From: a virus | Length of the DNA: 64,000 nt | Virus record (IMG/VR): IMGVR_UViG_3300035698_017294 | Location: 32,001 to 96,000 of that record | Strand: one strand, 5' to 3' | In this document: positions 1 to 48,215 of the stretch, in pieces | Numbering within the stretch: position 1 is the stretch's first letter | Layout of the letters: the number at the start of each line of letters is the position of its first letter | The notes under the pieces: generated by a model | Told to the model about the DNA's origin: nothing | The model's input: the letters and a program-made list of their open reading frames with translations, nothing else | Database searches by the model: none | Program-made: the position numbers and the translations under genes

Positions 1-31
1 CGAGTTTTGATTCGGCATTATTTTTCACCAT
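1..31 (-). mobile_element. Probable 5' end of a group I intron in polA
   Basis: After ..AKGINFG the expected motif-B YG is missing. Exon end TTCGGT^AT pairs with ATGCCGAA (11-18) as a P1 helix with a U.G pair at the junction, phase 0. Confidence 0.6.
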
Positions 32-1363
32 ACCGAAATTGATGCCTTTGGCTTGTTGTCTTAGATCTGCATATTCCTCTTTAATCTCATGGTTCACAGT
101 TAATTCGGTGTATTCCATTTCGAATAGCAGGGAGGCAACATAGCTATGAATGTCATAGCCGTTCTCTAATGCGTAAATCCACGAATCCTCGCCAGATAGC
201 TCGGCAATTATTCGTAGCTCACAGCCAGCGTAATCTGAGGCCATGATAAGCCAATCGCCGAACTGTGCGGTAAACGCAGCTCTGTATACATTGGCTCGTG
301 GTATGTTTTGCAGGTTTGGATTTCGACTCGAAGAGCGGCCCGTATCTGCTTCAATTTGCTTAAAATCGGAATGTATTCTACCTGTATCGTCGCGAACATG
401 TTCGTCGTACAAAACCATTCCGTAGGTAGTTATCAGCTTGGACGCTTTGCGCCAGGCCAGTAGGTTTGCTACAACTGGTCTATCGCTGTATATCTCAATT
501 ACATCATTACCTGTTCCGGCAAGTGGTTTTCCTACAGCTGATTCTAAAATCGGCTTTACCTGCGCAGGTGATCCGTAGTTCAATAAATACGCAAACTCAT
601 CACCGAAGTCCAGCGCGCCTTGCCCAGTATCGGGCAGGTGCGGCTTTACAGCGTGATCCAATCGTATCTTAGCTAGATCGCGCGCCTTAATGGCAGAATC
701 TTCAAGCTTCTGCCAGCGCTCCTTATTTAGGAATATTCCATTTAATTCCATGTCACCCATAGCTGAAACTGTGCCACATTCTATGTTTAGCAGTTCTAGC
801 ATTTTTTTGTCGTTCATGGATTTTGCGTTAGCCAGCTGTTCCCCTATTATTGGTAGCATAACTTCTGCATCATACGCGGAATATTCTAGTTGGGCTTTTG
901 TAAAAGAATCGCCGTAAGTCATTTCTGCAAAAGAGTTCCGCTCCTCCTTATCCATTGGTTTATATCTTGGCAGGTAGCGTTCAACAAGATGGGCCAAACT
1001 AAACCCCTTCTTACGCTTACCCTTATTAAGCACTTGCTCAATTATGAACGTGTCCATAATATTAACAAGCTCAACTCCGAAGTTTGTTTTTATCATTTTA
1101 TAATCAAACTTCAGATTGTGTCCTACCCATTTAGTCTTTTGATTTCCTAAGAAATCTCCTAGACGGTCGTATTCAAGGGCACTTAGCTGCGCTACATCAA
1201 ATACGTACTGAAATTCATCTGTACCTAGCTGCACCAATAAAACTTGGCACGATAGCGGATCCAGTCCAGTTGTTTCAGTATCAAGACCTAACGCCGGGTA
1301 GTGCGAAAGCACGCCCAACGCCTTGTCTAAATCTTTGCCTGATGTAATTACTTTATAGCTCAT
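1..1363 (-). CDS. polA: DNA polymerase family A, exon 1 (3'-5' exonuclease plus polymerase up to motif B); continues off the window
   Basis: Absent from the ORF track. Manual translation from ATG 1363: MSYKVITSG..LGLDTETTGLDP (ExoI), GHNLKFD (ExoII), YSAYDA (ExoIII), TGRSSSRNPNLQNIP, DYAGCELRIIA (motif A), DIHS, RQQAKGINFG (motif B). Confidence 0.95.
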   Translation of the reverse strand, partial: MSYKVITSGKDLDKALGVLSHYPALGLDTETTGLDPLSCQVLLVQLGTDEFQYVFDVAQLSALEYDRLGDFLGNQKTKWVGHNLKFDYKMIKTNFGVELVNIMDTFIIEQVLNKGKRKKGFSLAHLVERYLPRYKPMDKEERNSFAEMTYGDSFTKAQLEYSAYDAEVMLPIIGEQLANAKSMNDKKMLELLNIECGTVSAMGDMELNGIFLNKERWQKLEDSAIKARDLAKIRLDHAVKPHLPDTGQGALDFGDEFAYLLNYGSPAQVKPILESAVGKPLAGTGNDVIEIYSDRPVVANLLAWRKASKLITTYGMVLYDEHVRDDTGRIHSDFKQIEADTGRSSSRNPNLQNIPRANVYRAAFTAQFGDWLIMASDYAGCELRIIAELSGEDSWIYALENGYDIHSYVASLLFEMEYTELTVNHEIKEEYADLRQQAKGINFGMVKNNAESKL

Positions 1364-30918: not shown

Positions 30919-31430
30919 AATTTATCTCCGTTGTTGGGCCTTTCGGACATTATAACTGTTAACTCTTCAAGACTTATAGGACTGTAGTCGTTATTATCGA
31001 CTCCGACGTCCCACGATTTTCCAATCGGCGGTAAACTAGAATGGCTATGTCCGTAGATGTGCCACGAATTCCTATGTGATTGATTCCATACGCGCATGGC
31101 ATAGTGACACATCGTAAGTCTCACTCGGCTATCAAGTTGAATTTCAACCAGTGGTGATACAAATTTAAACAGGTGTTTAACGTTTAGTGCAGGTTTATCA
31201 TGGTTCCCTGAAATAAGAACTATGTCACCGTTCAATTGGTGAATAAATGGGGCAGCCGGACTAAAAGAAAAGTCACCGAGGTGGTATACTAAATCCCCAT
31301 GCTTAACTTTCTTATTCCAGTTTTCGACTAGAGATTTGTTCATGTGGTGTGCGTTATCAAAGGGTCGCTGGCAAAATTTAATAATATTGGCATGACCGAA
31401 GTGTGTATCGGCTGTGAAAAATAGATTCAT
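30915..31430 (-). CDS. Calcineurin-like metallophosphoesterase
   Basis: TADTHFGH, YHLGDF, GNHD, HYAM, YGHSH, DVGVD. Confidence 0.92.
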   Translation of the reverse strand: MNLFFTADTHFGHANIIKFCQRPFDNAHHMNKSLVENWNKKVKHGDLVYHLGDFSFSPAAPFIHQLNGDIVLISGNHDKPALNVKHLFKFVSPLVEIQLDSRVRLTMCHYAMRVWNQSHRNSWHIYGHSHSSLPPIGKSWDVGVDNNDYSPISLEELTVIMSERPNNGDKL

Positions 31431-31810
31431 TTTGCTATTACACATTTCTGCCAAGCGAATGGGAAGTCGGTTACTCTGGCCGCACCGAGGTTATCAGCTA
31501 GAATTTCTAACATCCATTGCCGTCCTTTTGGGTTTATGCTATGTAGGACCACAACACCGGGGAATATAATTGGGCCTAACTCTTCTGCTATATACCTAGC
31601 TACATCACTACCAGTTCCTGCGGCTCCCGCTTCTAGCATTTCTTGCCCGCCCAGATCGTGATCTAAAAAGACGACATCAAATTTTGGGTTTAGTTTTAAT
31701 AGTTCAATTGCTCTATCTGCTGTACGTACGAAGTGGATATTCTCTGGAAAGTAATTATCTACGAATTGAGCTATTCTTTCTGCGTTGTCTTCTAAAATTA
31801 ATATTCTCAT
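31427..31810 (-). CDS. Cyclic-phosphate-processing receiver-domain protein
   Basis: LILEDN..R, FLDHDLG, TG.DVA, VLHS.NP.G..M. Confidence 0.8.
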   Translation of the reverse strand: MRILILEDNAERIAQFVDNYFPENIHFVRTADRAIELLKLNPKFDVVFLDHDLGGQEMLEAGAAGTGSDVARYIAEELGPIIFPGVVVLHSINPKGRQWMLEILADNLGAARVTDFPFAWQKCVIAK

Positions 31811-31837
31811 TTTTCCCCTTTTAACTTAAATAAAAAA

Positions 31838-31909
31838 AGCACCCGGAGAGACTCGAACTCTCGTCACCTGGGTGGAAGCCAGGGTCCTTAACCGCTAGGA
31901 TACGGGTGC
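31838..31909 (-). tRNA. tRNA-Gly(UCC)
   Basis: CCTGG-ctTCCac-CCAGG; U73. Confidence 0.92.
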
Positions 31910-31918
31910 ATTAGCTGT

Positions 31919-32530
31919 TTAATAATCAGTTACTATCCAGTAAGTGCCGTCGCTAAAATCAAATGTAGCTTCGTGACACTCATCGAGATTCATATTGTCT
32001 GTAAGTATCTCCAGCGAGTCACGCTTTATCAGGCGGAATCTAGAGGTATGTTGGTCGCTTTTAATTTTATCTCGTGCTCGCATTAGGGCTAAGCCTAATC
32101 TGTTTTGTCCGCGCCATTTAGACTCGTCAAGGCGTCGGCCATCGCCAATACCTAATCCAATTCCCCACCGCTTATCTGATGGACTGCACTCTACTAGGAC
32201 ACTATCCCCAGTACGCATCAGTTCGCTGCATGCGTTTGGGTTGCCGCGGAATTTGGATAGCACTGAGTAATACATTATATCATCGGCTATCTTATCCCAA
32301 GCGGTGTCGGAATAACTTGCTATTGTGCGTCCAAAGGCTTTCGCTTCCGCAGGTGTTTTGGCTTTTAAAATGGCTTCGGCTGTAGCCGTGTCCCAAAAAG
32401 ACAGGGCCTTGTACCACATAAAACAATGCTCACTCGTTAGAAACATTGTATTGGTGTGAAAGAACGGTGCGCGGTGAAAGTTACTGAAAGGTGATATAGA
32501 ATTATAAAAAAACGTGTACTTTGGTTCCAT
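31919..32530 (-). CDS. NADAR (YbiA) family N-glycosidase
   Basis: PFSNFH, TSEH.FM..KA, P.EAK.FGR, LVECSPSDKRWGIG, WRGQNRLG.ALM..R. Confidence 0.92.
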   Translation of the reverse strand: MEPKYTFFYNSISPFSNFHRAPFFHTNTMFLTSEHCFMWYKALSFWDTATAEAILKAKTPAEAKAFGRTIASYSDTAWDKIADDIMYYSVLSKFRGNPNACSELMRTGDSVLVECSPSDKRWGIGLGIGDGRRLDESKWRGQNRLGLALMRARDKIKSDQHTSRFRLIKRDSLEILTDNMNLDECHEATFDFSDGTYWIVTDY

Positions 32531-32562
32531 GGCATGACTCCTTAAGATTAGCAAATACGTAA

Positions 32563-32636
32563 CGGGACTGGCGGGATTCGAACCCGCGATCACCAACGTG
32601 ACAGGCTGGCGTCCTAGACCGCTAGACTACAGCCCC
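32563..32636 (-). tRNA. tRNA-Asp(GUC)
   Basis: CCAGC-ctGTCac-GTTGG. Confidence 0.93.
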
Positions 32637-32639
32637 AAG

Positions 32640-32713
32640 TGGGGCAAGGAGGACTTGAACCTCCGACCTTTCGGTTATCAGCCGAATGCTCTAACCTACT
32701 GAGCTACTGCTCC
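32640..32713 (-). tRNA. tRNA-Ile(GAU)
   Basis: TTCGG-ctGATaa-CCGAA. Confidence 0.93.
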
Positions 32714-33337
32714 TTTTTTTGCTTTTTTAATCTTATCGTGTTCTTTGTGAATGAGTTTAAGAATGAACTTCACATCCGCTAGCATACGCCTAATGATTGG
32801 CATAGCACCAATTACGGCATCTAAATTAATCTTTAGGGTTGTAGAACAGTCCGCTATAAATATCATGTTTCTGTTATGATCGTAAACAATCGTACCAGAG
32901 CCATCCCGGTGGTCTATATTCAAGAAAGACGAAAATGATTTTCCAGCGATTACATGTTCAAAGGCCTTTTGTATTCTATCCATTTTGTGATACGTACGAG
33001 CTAGTCTATCGCCATCGTCAGGCTTATTTGTTGTAAAGAAAGGTACATCAAGACTAATACTTTCCTTTTCGCCAATTGCAAATCCGCCCTTTGGCGCGTC
33101 GATATTGAACATATAAAAGTTCAATGCACCATCGCCTTTGAGCCACGGGTTTTTAGTCCACCTACTCTCACCGGTATCTGTATAACCGTGTGTATGGGTG
33201 TGGCTCGTAAGCGTTATTTCTGATTCCATCATTAAGATCATGGTTTGTGGACCTGTTGTTTGGTCCTTGGATGTAACCATACCATGTGCCCTGCGCACTC
33301 TATACGTTTTTCTTTTTTTATCAGGATCCTTCATCAT
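32696..33337 (-). CDS. Hypothetical protein (start uncertain)
   Basis: ORF whose 3' end overlaps the tRNA-Ile 5' end. Confidence 0.55.
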   Translation of the reverse strand: MMKDPDKKRKTYRVRRAHGMVTSKDQTTGPQTMILMMESEITLTSHTHTHGYTDTGESRWTKNPWLKGDGALNFYMFNIDAPKGGFAIGEKESISLDVPFFTTNKPDDGDRLARTYHKMDRIQKAFEHVIAGKSFSSFLNIDHRDGSGTIVYDHNRNMIFIADCSTTLKINLDAVIGAMPIIRRMLADVKFILKLIHKEHDKIKKAKKGAVAQ

Positions 33338-33779
33338 CGTCCTTTAGTAATATCGCCCTTGCAATTTCGTACTTAGTTCTTAATCGTTTCTGCATACTCG
33401 GTGGCAGTTTTTTCATTCTGTATTCTGATGTATTATCCACTATATCTGCATATAGTTTCACATCAAATGCTATGAAGTTTGATTTTACCCTATGCATATA
33501 ATTAGCATACGGTTCGTCTTTACGCTTTGTTATAGCTACAACGCTGTCTATAATAAATTTTGGCATGCCTATATTCATAAGATCTGCTGCGGTAGCATCT
33601 GTTTCCTCTAGAACATCATGTAGTACCCCTACTACCATGTGATCAAGTCCGTAGTCAACCATCATGGCCATTACGCGCATTACGTGTGATACGTAAAGAA
33701 AGCCGGACTTATCTGGAGTGGTGCCGTGCTTCTCAAATGCAAAGTTAATAGCTGTAATTAGTAAAGAAATGTCGACCAT
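33321..33779 (-). CDS. Small HD hydrolase (SpoT/Mesh1-like alarmone-hydrolase family)
   Basis: A.EKH...DKSG..Y..H..RV, VLHDVLEET, V.AITK, VKLYADIVDN. Confidence 0.8.
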   Translation of the reverse strand: MVDISLLITAINFAFEKHGTTPDKSGFLYVSHVMRVMAMMVDYGLDHMVVGVLHDVLEETDATAADLMNIGMPKFIIDSVVAITKRKDEPYANYMHRVKSNFIAFDVKLYADIVDNTSEYRMKKLPPSMQKRLRTKYEIARAILLKDDDEGS

Positions 33780-37189: not shown

Positions 37190-37283
37190 GATTACTCCTT
37201 TACTTAAACGTTTTGGTATATCTAATTTAATTAATACGAGTGGAGGGAATCGAACCCACACGGGATTTCTCCCACTAGATCCT

Positions 37284-38085
37284 CTTACCACACTTGCTTT
37301 CACAAGCCAGCTATTAAGCTGTTGTAGTCTGGACTATATCATCATCTTCAGCATTACCTGCTAAGAGCCCGGCGTATAGTCTCTGAGGGGTCATTACAGA
37401 CTTCCCTGCGGATTGCCAATTGTTTCATTCTACACATTGTTACTTGACAAATCAGTCCAAATTTGGTAGACTTGTAGTAGTGCAGACTTTACGGGTTTCC
37501 CGCATATAGCCAGGTTCCATCTAATTATTTCTAACCAGAGGCTCAGATTCATGAAAAATATATCAAAAGATGTTTTGTCAGAAATGTATTTAACGCAGAA
37601 ACTTAATCCATACGAAATAAGTAATATACTAGACTGCGATCATAAAACAGTTCGTAGATACCTAAAATTACATAAGATACAACTACGTACTGCGTCTGAG
37701 TATAATTACTTACCTCGAGTTTCGCATACTAATCCCACTAAAATAGAGTATATGCAGCCTAAATCAATAGCGGCGCATATTGCCTATTTATGCGAAGGTT
37801 GGCACACTAATAAAACTAATGGGCTTTATTTCTGTAATACAGATCCAAATTTAAATGATCTCATGTTGTGGTGCCTCAAAGAGATATACAATGCTAAAAC
37901 TATTAGATTGCGCATAATGGCAAAGTCTTTAGAGTCGGCAAAGCATTTATTAACATTCTATCCTAATACACCAGTAAGTGTAGAGTTAGATAGAAAGACA
38001 CCAATACTTAGAATTGTCTCGGGCGGGAAAACATTTGCTCGGGACTTCATTAAAAACGCTTATGATATAATTGATTCACTTGGTT
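37284..38085 (-). mobile_element. Group I intron (IC-like) between anticodon positions 34 and 35
   Basis: U before the 5' splice site, terminal G; IGS-like TGAGCC; P TATATGCGGGAAA, Q AATCCGCAGG, R CTCAGAGACTATA, S ATGATATAGTCC. Confidence 0.92.
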
Positions 38086-38087
38086 AA
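37551..38087 (+). CDS. HTH plus LAGLIDADG-like putative homing endonuclease, antisense within the intron P1 loop
   Basis: N-terminal HTH (EISNILDCDHKTVRRYL), AHIAYLCEG..LYFCNTDP motif; the only convincing plus-strand CDS. Confidence 0.7.
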   Translation: MKNISKDVLSEMYLTQKLNPYEISNILDCDHKTVRRYLKLHKIQLRTASEYNYLPRVSHTNPTKIEYMQPKSIAAHIAYLCEGWHTNKTNGLYFCNTDPNLNDLMLWCLKEIYNAKTIRLRIMAKSLESAKHLLTFYPNTPVSVELDRKTPILRIVSGGKTFARDFIKNAYDIIDSLG

Positions 38088-38129
38088 GTCTAGCGCGTAT
38101 ACCTAGTTTCGCCACACTCGCTAAAAGCG

Positions 38130-38210
38130 TACAGTTAGAGGGACTCGAACCCCCAAGGTATCACAGTACCACAACTCTCACTGCGCGTCTACCATTTTCG
38201 CCATAACTGT
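38130..38210 (-). tRNA. tRNA-Leu(GAG)-like with a shortened anticodon arm
   Basis: Leu-type D-arm GGCGAAAATGGTAGACGC, variable arm and T-arm, but loop TGAGAG is 6 nt. Confidence 0.55.
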
Positions 38211-38224
38211 ACTTTAATTTCGTA

Positions 38225-38294
38225 AGGTAGACCAAAGAGGTTTCGAACCTCAAATTGTCCGGACACTGCGCTCACCCAATGCGCTGGTCTACCT
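38225..38294 (-). ncRNA. Miniature tRNA-like RNA lacking an anticodon loop
   Basis: 10-bp AGGTAGACCA/TGGTCTACCT, D-like GCGC hairpin, TGTC-cg-GACA stub, GAGG-TTCGAAA-CCTC T-arm. Confidence 0.55.
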
Positions 38295-39731: not shown

Positions 39732-39931
39732 CTATACTCCTCGTACTTTATCAATTCTACTTTTCACCACGATGCCGAGATGCTAAACTGGCGTTACCAC
39801 TTAAATTCTAAGATATTTATTTTTTCTTAATATTTTAGAATTTAAGTATAAACGCAGTTTGGTCTATATGTGCAATATACATATAACATAAGTGGCGAAT
39901 CACCACTTAAATATTTGAATCTAGAATTGAG

Positions 39932-40013
39932 TGGGGCTACCCGGACTCGAACTGGGACGGGGTTAACCCAGCGAATTTTAAGTTCGCCGTGTCTGCCATT
40001 CCACCATAGCCCC
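39932..40013 (-). tRNA. tRNA-Leu(UAA)
   Basis: GCGAA-ctTAAaa-TTCGC; variable arm. Confidence 0.93.
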
Positions 40014-48118: not shown

Positions 48119-48215
48119 TGGGGCACCCAGGACTCGAACCTGGAACCAACAGAGTCCGCAGCGTCATACAGCGCCGCTTACAGTCAGCTGCCCTAGCCAA
48201 TTGAGCTAGCGCCCC
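48119..48215 (-). tRNA. tRNA-Tyr(GUA)-like with a ~23-nt insertion 3' of the anticodon (48155-48177)
   Basis: GCTGA-ctGTAa-[GCGGCG ctgtatga CGCTGC gga]-c-TCTGT; short variable loop. Confidence 0.7.

Follow-up and report, generated by a model that had tools for sequence, protein, structure and literature searches.

In the IMG/VR virus record IMGVR_UViG_3300035698_017294, a leucine tRNA gene with the anticodon UAG is split by a group I intron, and the intron carries a protein-coding gene on its opposite strand. The 64,000 nucleotides (nt) at positions 32,001 to 96,000 of this record are herein called the window; coordinates are window positions unless a locus is named. We consider the element, with a probability of about three in four, to be a mobile group I intron of IC3-like type that sits in a phage tRNA-Leu(UAG) gene and carries an antisense homing endonuclease. 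The record, a virus contig of 106 kb (∼56% complete), has this gene as its sole tRNA-Leu(UAG), and the antisense open reading frame (ORF) occurs in it once. No phage of the collection searched has a DNA polymerase more than 32% identical to that of the window's phage, and megablast and tblastn searches of 50,697 phage records gave no match to the region or the protein. Distant blastn matches to Lak phages were rejected as relatives; they cover only the intron element P9 and the 3′ exon, and the Lak-B1 locus has no group I match.

A Group I Intron between U34 and A35 of tRNA-Leu(UAG)

The tRNA-Leu(UAG) gene spans 37235-38121 on the minus strand and is interrupted by one intron. Read along that strand, the 5′ half starts at 38121 and its last bases are ...GCUAGACUU at 38086; the 3′ half opens with AGGAUCUAG at 37283 and ends at 37235.

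38086..38121, minus strand: 5′ exon of tRNA-Leu(UAG), comprising the acceptor strand, D arm, 5′ strand of the anticodon stem and loop bases C32, U33 and U34 (sequence, and ARAGORN on the spliced sequence)
37284..38085, minus strand: group I intron, 802 nt; first base A after U34, last base G before A35 (Rfam RF00028, exon-defined boundaries and eight loci with the same boundaries)
37235..37283, minus strand: 3′ exon, from A35 and G36 onward, comprising the long variable arm, T arm, acceptor strand and discriminator A (sequence, and ARAGORN on the spliced sequence)

Joining the exons in silico gives an 85-nt type II tRNA with a normal cloverleaf, which ARAGORN calls as tRNA-Leu(tag); the intron therefore sits between U34 and A35. 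CCA is not encoded in the 3′ exon. The Rfam group I model RF00028 matches 37311-37565 on the minus strand with 63.3 bits (gathering cut-off 50; E = 1e-13). The elements of the intron are listed below; P2 through P9 are placed by the core alignment.

37284..37540, minus strand: ribozyme core (alignment A2 of nine cores, RNAalifold, and pair counts with controls)
37541..37547, minus strand: internal guide sequence U-CU-GAG-C (P1 pairing kept in 9 of 9 loci)
37538-37521, minus strand: P2, with a GAAA loop
37514-37509 with 37373-37368, minus strand: P3
37503-37499 with 37412-37408, minus strand: P4
37494-37416, minus strand: P5/P5a with an extension
37407-37386, minus strand: P6
37385-37374, minus strand: R/P7
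37366-37345, minus strand: P8
37342-37329, minus strand: S/P7′
37328-37284, minus strand: P9.0/P9, with a GAAA loop

The guide element CUGAGC (37546-37541) begins at intron nt 540. Its GAG forms P1 with C32-U33-U34, in which the splice-site pair is a U34-G wobble; the U that precedes GAG pairs with the first intron base. The (C/U)CU of the guide can pair with A35-G36-G37 of the 3′ exon to form P10. A pairing of the guide with the S element drawn by RNAalifold was discarded as an artefact, as the program cannot draw the P3/P7 pseudoknot. GAAA loops on P2 and P9 and the lack of a P5abc-type domain, both seen in A2 at the core coordinates, fit IC3 introns of bacterial tRNA genes; we describe the intron as IC3-like on these features.

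These results bear on the original prediction, which had been made from the letters of the window. An 802-nt intron between U34 and A35 with a full P/Q/R/S core had been proposed; size, site and core all hold, the spliced exons forming a canonical tRNA-Leu and the core being a group I core by its Rfam score and its covarying helices. The guide was said to be a TGAGCC element displaced ∼540 nt from the splice site. The displacement is as described, and the working guide is CCU-GAG rather than TGAGCC. An uninterrupted tRNA-Leu(UAA), noted as lying nearby, is found at 39931-40013.

The Same Layout Recurs with Compensatory Changes in Eight Other Loci

DNA around relatives was taken from viral, genome and metagenome collections. 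The same layout occurs in eight other distinct loci (L004, L005, L006, L007, L013, L016, L018 and L019; L007 was also recovered as L008 and L017 and is counted once), five of which lie on phage contigs of 130-260 kb. In each of the eight, the ORF faces a group I core (56-79 bits) that is encoded on the other strand and lies immediately upstream of the ATG. The spliced product is a tRNA-Leu(tag) by ARAGORN in the window and seven of these loci, and by hand in L018; the anticodon is UAG in all nine. P1 has four base pairs (bp) in every locus, the exon-terminal U is always paired with the G of CUGAGC, and the last intron base is always G. In L018 and L019, the exon ends in UUU rather than CUU and the guide reads GAA rather than GAG, a compensatory change in P1 from C-G to U-A. 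The 3-bp P10 is intact in eight of the nine.

Covariation in the core was assessed on alignment A2, which holds the nine cores at 72% mean column identity under a hand-corrected structure that includes P7. Pairing is possible in 96.8% of 494 cells, as opposed to 32-46% in controls with slid 3′ partners. Of the 55 pairs, 31 show changes on both sides; 0 of 500 shuffles reached the observed values. P7 does not vary across A2 and is thus uninformative on covariation. The recurrence of the layout in eight loci, together with the excess of pairing over the slid controls, means that the arrangement is not due to chance.

The same data bear on whether the intron could be a decayed relic, the split tRNA-Leu(UAG) a pseudogene and the ORF a selfish gene that landed in it. 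The unusually large P1 loop would fit such a history, as would the second leucine tRNA of this phage, tRNA-Leu(UAA). However, nine diverged loci retain every core helix through compensatory changes, P1 and P10 pairing with the exons is kept, and the exons fold into a canonical tRNA-Leu, a pattern that a dead intron would not show. We hold decay to be highly improbable.

An Antisense ORF Fills the Loop of P1

The opposite strand of the intron carries an ORF of 178 amino acids (aa).

37551..38087, plus strand: ORF, 178 aa, with an N-terminal helix-turn-helix (HTH; ∼1-55) and a single LAGLIDADG-fold domain (∼60-178) (ORF list, 45 homologues, AlphaFold2 model and fold matches)
37444..37472, plus strand: candidate sigma70-like promoter, TTGACA-17-TAGACT with a preceding TG, antisense of the P5 extension (consensus match only)
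38075..38079, minus strand: candidate P1 extension, 5′ strand (fixed-register pairing and RNAduplex)
37551..37555, minus strand: candidate P1 extension, 3′ strand, containing the antisense of the ORF's ATG (fixed-register pairing and RNAduplex)

The ATG lies 4 nt from CUGAGC, and the TAA stop (38085-38087) lies opposite U33, U34 and the first intron base and so straddles the 5′ splice site; the ORF therefore fills the whole stretch from splice site to guide. The P1 loop between these two points measures 535 nt and is coding on the opposite strand. Both an antisense 178-aa ORF in the P1 loop and a stop codon across the splice junction had been read in the earlier annotation, and both are borne out at these coordinates. 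In L018 (L018:2501-3097), the intron starts with G instead of A and the junction TAA is lost; the frame there runs on for 20 codons through the antisense of the entire 5′ exon to give 198 aa.

The ORF-bearing loop is likely closed by a stem, for which there is moderate support. Intron positions +7 to +12 can pair with the 5-10 nt before the guide; 39 of 54 cells are paired in the fixed register, against 24-34 when slid, and in six of the nine loci the RNAduplex energy was matched by at most 3 of 200 shuffles. Upstream of the ORF, the −10 element of the candidate promoter (37467-37472) ends 78 nt before the ATG, and sigma70-like sites (9-11 of 12 consensus positions) are found 78-99 nt upstream of the ATG in five of the nine loci.

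The ORF Protein Has a Predicted HTH-LAGLIDADG Architecture

A protein search returned 45 homologues with 34-66% identity, nearly all of 175-190 aa. Nine residues are invariant across the 45-sequence family (H76, C81, E82, G83, F94, N96, R148, G158 and G159), as is the motif (Y/F)LCEGWH, in which E82-G83 closes the first helix of the LAGLIDADG domain (residues 70-82). By its position, E82-G83 would occupy the site of the catalytic Asp/Glu-Gly of LAGLIDADG enzymes, equivalent to D20-G21 of I-CreI.

AlphaFold2 run on the 45-sequence alignment gave a model with a predicted local distance difference test score (pLDDT) of 94.7, consisting of three short N-terminal helices, helix 70-82 and then a beta-beta-alpha-beta-beta-alpha arrangement. 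In an exhaustive VIA-align search, residues 57/65-178 of this model matched more than 12 LAGLIDADG structures (Z = 8.9 to 4.3). The best match is the endonuclease domain of the TliVMA intein (Z = 8.9 over 90 residues, root-mean-square deviation 2.7), and others include I-DmoI (Z = 7.0), E-DreI (6.5) and I-CreI (5.5), as well as PI-PkoII, I-Vdi141I, I-MsoI, I-Tsp061I, PI-PfuI, I-CeuI and I-CvuI. A structure search of the ESM Atlas gave template modeling scores of 0.76-0.80 to clusters that are 67-94% PF14528 (LAGLIDADG_3). The fold is called on VIA-align and the Atlas because Foldseek against the Protein Data Bank (PDB) gave only weak hits. The claim that the ORF is endonuclease-like agrees with these results, in which the C-terminal 120 residues adopt a LAGLIDADG fold.

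No Pfam model detects the protein. A sequence-profile search of the PDB found the HTH and no LAGLIDADG match, and PHROG matches are confined to residues 4-51, an HTH shared by families annotated as HNH endonucleases and as regulators. A profile search of 1.8 billion representative proteins was likewise dominated by the HTH and provided no sequence bridge to named LAGLIDADG families. Its matches comprise ∼20 full-length clusters together with thousands of long proteins, P0049-P0195 among them, in which the ∼45-residue HTH module (Pfam HTH_23 and relatives) is repeated 4-14 times in tandem. On the structural model, we assign the protein to an unnamed HTH-LAGLIDADG, homing-endonuclease-like family. 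With one LAGLIDADG domain per chain, it would act as a homodimer. Such an enzyme would find a suitable target in the anticodon arm, an inverted repeat in which the insertion site is close to the center.

Free-Standing Homologues and Empty Target Sites

The gene family also occurs outside introns. In L003 (also recovered as L009 and L010) and L011, a homologous gene of 189 aa stands free and convergent with an uninterrupted tRNA-Leu(UAG); it overlaps the 3′ half of the tRNA gene and stops on the antisense of U33-U34-A35. The Rfam group I search found no ribozyme near either gene. In the homologues P0021, P0029 and P0042, the C-terminal peptide corresponds to a T arm translated in antisense, and these genes are probably free-standing too. 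In a maximum-likelihood tree, the five free-standing members fall in at least four places, three of the five being classed as such from their C-terminal peptides alone; this weakly suggests repeated switching between free-standing and intronic positions. Tentatively, then, one nuclease lineage may have switched repeatedly between a free-standing and an in-intron position, antisense and ending on the anticodon loop in both; we regard this as possible rather than probable.

The exact 18-nt ligated-exon sequence of the window is present in at least 112 viral contigs. Of 80 examined, 75 belong to a tRNA-Leu(tag) that is uninterrupted and has no homologue of the ORF in its vicinity; sites that could receive the intron are thus plentiful. 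Compared with the 18-nt sequence, the tRNAs next to the free-standing genes of L003 and L011 are changed at C32 and on the 3′ side of the anticodon stem, with a further change at G37 in L003; one may speculate that these differences could protect them from cleavage. The idea, after Loizos, that the flank of the ORF mimics the nuclease target was rejected, the similarity between guide region and 3′ exon being no higher than in shuffles.

The abundance in other phage genomes of intron-less sites identical to the ligated exons would also fit an active nuclease that serves chiefly as a weapon against the tRNA-Leu(UAG) region of co-infecting phages, rather than for purely selfish homing. An intron-encoded endonuclease favors PhiPA3 over PhiKZ (Birkholz 2024, reviewed in PMC12908238), SegB of T4 targets a tRNA gene region (PMC2988022), and the free-standing genes of L003 and L011 fit "intronless homing" or marker exclusion. 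Against this, the sequence gives nothing to separate a weapon from ordinary homing, and a non-essential phage tRNA is a weak point of attack. We think it quite improbable that competition is the chief role.

A Proposed Homing Pathway and the Results That Weigh against It

For a mobile intron with an antisense homing endonuclease, we propose the following pathway. The pre-tRNA would be made from the minus strand. The guide CCU-GAG would pair with C32-U33-U34 and with A35-G36-G37, and the intron would be excised after U34 and after its terminal G, leaving a normal tRNA-Leu(UAG), the sole one in the record. The antisense gene would probably have a promoter of its own, located opposite the P5 extension. 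In co-infecting phages whose tRNA-Leu(UAG) gene lacks the intron, a homodimer could then cleave that gene at the anticodon arm, and repair off the intron-bearing copy would spread the intron together with its gene.

A number of results weigh against this proposal. The Pfam LAGLIDADG models do not match the ORF protein even at E values up to 10, and a Foldseek search of the PDB, in which nothing reached E ≤ 0.001, has its best LAGLIDADG row at E = 0.17 with a probability of 0.94. The VIA-align Z scores of 5-9 are middling by the tool's own scale, and among the best of them is WhiA (Z = 6.8 and 6.1), a non-catalytic regulator that likewise combines an HTH with a LAGLIDADG domain. K160, the candidate for a second catalytic residue, is not invariant. 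At the DNA level, four of the nine loci have only weak sigma70-type promoter matches. A 3′-junction search for tRNA-Leu(UAG) introns without an ORF yielded nothing beyond the contigs of L004, L005 and L007 and four chance matches, nor were two near-identical phages seen that differ by the intron alone; because both are missing, recent mobility is putative.

The match to WhiA and the silence of the Pfam nuclease models would be expected if the protein were not a nuclease but a DNA- or RNA-binding LAGLIDADG derivative, acting as a WhiA-like regulator or as a maturase that aids folding of the intron. A P1 helix interrupted by 535 nt might indeed need help in forming. However, the acidic residue of E82-G83 is invariant in the 45 sequences, whereas WhiA has lost the acidic residue at the end of its LAGLIDADG helix. 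A maturase role is further disfavored by the free-standing homologues, which adjoin intron-less tRNA-Leu genes and have no intron to mature, and by the RNA, which itself appears to provide a stem closing the loop. We consider a non-nuclease function unlikely and retain the homing endonuclease as the preferred assignment.

Other tRNA Genes and Introns

Phage tRNA introns recur beyond the nine loci. A scan of viral contigs for the S/P9.0 motif of the intron described here matched at least 117 contigs; on in silico splicing, the split gene was most often tRNA-Leu(UAA), followed by tRNA-Arg(UCU), UCA-anticodon tRNAs and tRNA-Lys(UUU). The long tRNA-Leu(UAA) and tRNA-Arg(UCU) introns carry HNH genes (PF13392) in the sense orientation, and every tRNA-Leu(UAG) intron found carries an antisense gene. 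Two phages have both kinds of intron: that of L016, and contig 3300005965_000002, which holds L005 together with L046. The combination of a UAG isoacceptor, a phage genome and an antisense ORF had been called unusual. All three are present, and the phage setting proves less unusual than supposed, tRNA introns not being rare in metagenomic data.

Several further observations concern these introns. Loci L021-L100 include ∼30 split tRNA-Leu(UAA) genes and several for tRNA-Arg(UCU), plus tRNA-Lys(UUU). Short introns (190-350 nt) have no ORF; in long ones (620-790 nt), the frames of the sense HNH genes continue through the ribozyme core, and their ...DIVQTTT ends are the translated S element. A UCA-anticodon tRNA with a long variable arm, labeled "SeC" by ARAGORN, is split by a 341-346-nt group I intron in six phage contigs (L022, L039, L061, L067, L073 and L075); its UGA-reading anticodon exists only after splicing. 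The phage of the window also has a second group I intron, in its family A DNA polymerase gene (L002:649-3004, or G000:C1 ∼31000-33400; 41.9 bits in a genome-wide search and 52.6 bits locally), whose core reaches into window positions 1-72. It carries a sense HNH endonuclease ORF fused in frame to exon 1 and is thus a conventional counterpart of the antisense tRNA intron.

All tRNA genes of the window are on the minus strand. Two tRNA-shaped genes (38129-38210 and 38228-38290, minus strand) lie immediately upstream of the split tRNA-Leu, and the anticodon arm is abnormal in both. In one of them the loop measures 12 nt, which ARAGORN reads as a four-base anticodon or as His with a 5-nt insert; the other is 63 nt long and carries a stub where the anticodon arm would be (20 bits with the Rfam tRNA model). 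A 97-nt tRNA by Rfam (48119-48215, minus strand; 46.5 bits) is absent from the default ARAGORN run. With introns allowed, ARAGORN places a 23-nt insert in its anticodon loop, too short for a group I intron.

Relation to Known Systems

The element belongs to a known kind, the mobile group I intron with a homing endonuclease. A survey of bacterial tRNA introns counted 5,292 in 21 classes, phages being outside its scope (Williams 2020, bioRxiv 10.1101/2020.01.27.920355). Like the classical tRNA-Leu(UAA) intron ("Leu.3Ug"), the intron described here is inserted after U34 and before A35, and it shares the wobble of U(−1) with G, the terminal G, a short P1 made of anticodon-loop bases only, and GAAA loops on P2 and P9; the phage tRNA-Leu(UAA) introns recovered share the S/P9.0 motif. 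Unlike the classical cyanobacterial and plastid intron, it interrupts a gene with the anticodon UAG in a phage genome, and its length is 802 nt instead of ∼200-300, the excess being due to the protein gene that occupies the P1 loop on the other strand.

Sense homing endonuclease genes are known from phage and bacterial group I introns, including T4 td/I-TevI, SPO1 I-HmuI and Pf-WMP3 I-PfoP3I (PMC2988022, PMC3428280). The present element resembles them in being a self-splicing-type intron with a nuclease gene in a peripheral loop and a highly conserved target; it differs in its tRNA host gene, the opposite-strand position of its gene and the divergent LAGLIDADG type of its nuclease. A 2014 review placed all phage group I introns then known in protein-coding genes, despite the many tRNA genes of phages (PMC3984707).

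Antisense endonuclease genes occur in introns of nuclear ribosomal DNA (rDNA), such as S956-2 of Didymium iridis (PMC3679873). There too the gene lies opposite the ribozyme in a peripheral element, P1 being a known site. The rDNA-intron genes are expressed from their own promoter, whereas the promoter here is a candidate; and in contrast to that nuclear rDNA setting with a His-Cys box enzyme, we find a phage tRNA, a LAGLIDADG fold and a stop codon derived from the anticodon loop. LAGLIDADG genes have also been reported, with orientation unstated, in T-loop introns of transfer-messenger RNA (tmRNA) genes (PMC11915505), which likewise combine a group I intron in a tRNA-like RNA gene with a LAGLIDADG-type gene. 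Those introns interrupt the T loop and have the ORF in P7.1 or after P9 (PMC11915505), not in P1, and their endonuclease genes are detectable by Pfam, unlike the present family.

Intronic and free-standing homologues acting on one site are known for F-CphI at psbA and for gene 5.3 of T3 with I-TslI (T3/PhiI), an arrangement termed "collaborative homing" (PMC3984707). Nuclease homologues similarly occur here within introns (nine loci) and beside an intron-less target (L003, L011 and probably three more), and the two forms may cut a shared site. Both are antisense to the target gene and end on the anticodon loop, a feature that we have not found described. Nor have we found described the combination of a phage tRNA-Leu(UAG) host, an unnamed HTH-LAGLIDADG family, a P1-filling antisense ORF with its stop in the anticodon loop, and free-standing forms.

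Significance

Together with dozens of related phage tRNA introns, this locus indicates that large phages hold a rich population of tRNA introns, and it brings out an HTH-LAGLIDADG family that is invisible to standard profiles. The default ARAGORN scan of the window missed the split tRNA-Leu(UAG); the tRNA repertoires of large phages are therefore undercounted. If the proposed switching between positions is true, the family would preserve, in living form, successive stages in the fusion of a ribozyme and a nuclease with the same site into a mobile intron. If the antisense layout works as proposed, with a promoter in the ribozyme and convergent transcription over the 5′ exon, it could link expression of the nuclease with maturation of the tRNA. 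With intronic and free-standing forms side by side and an abundance of empty sites, the family would make a practical system for studying the assembly of mobile introns and their role in phage competition.

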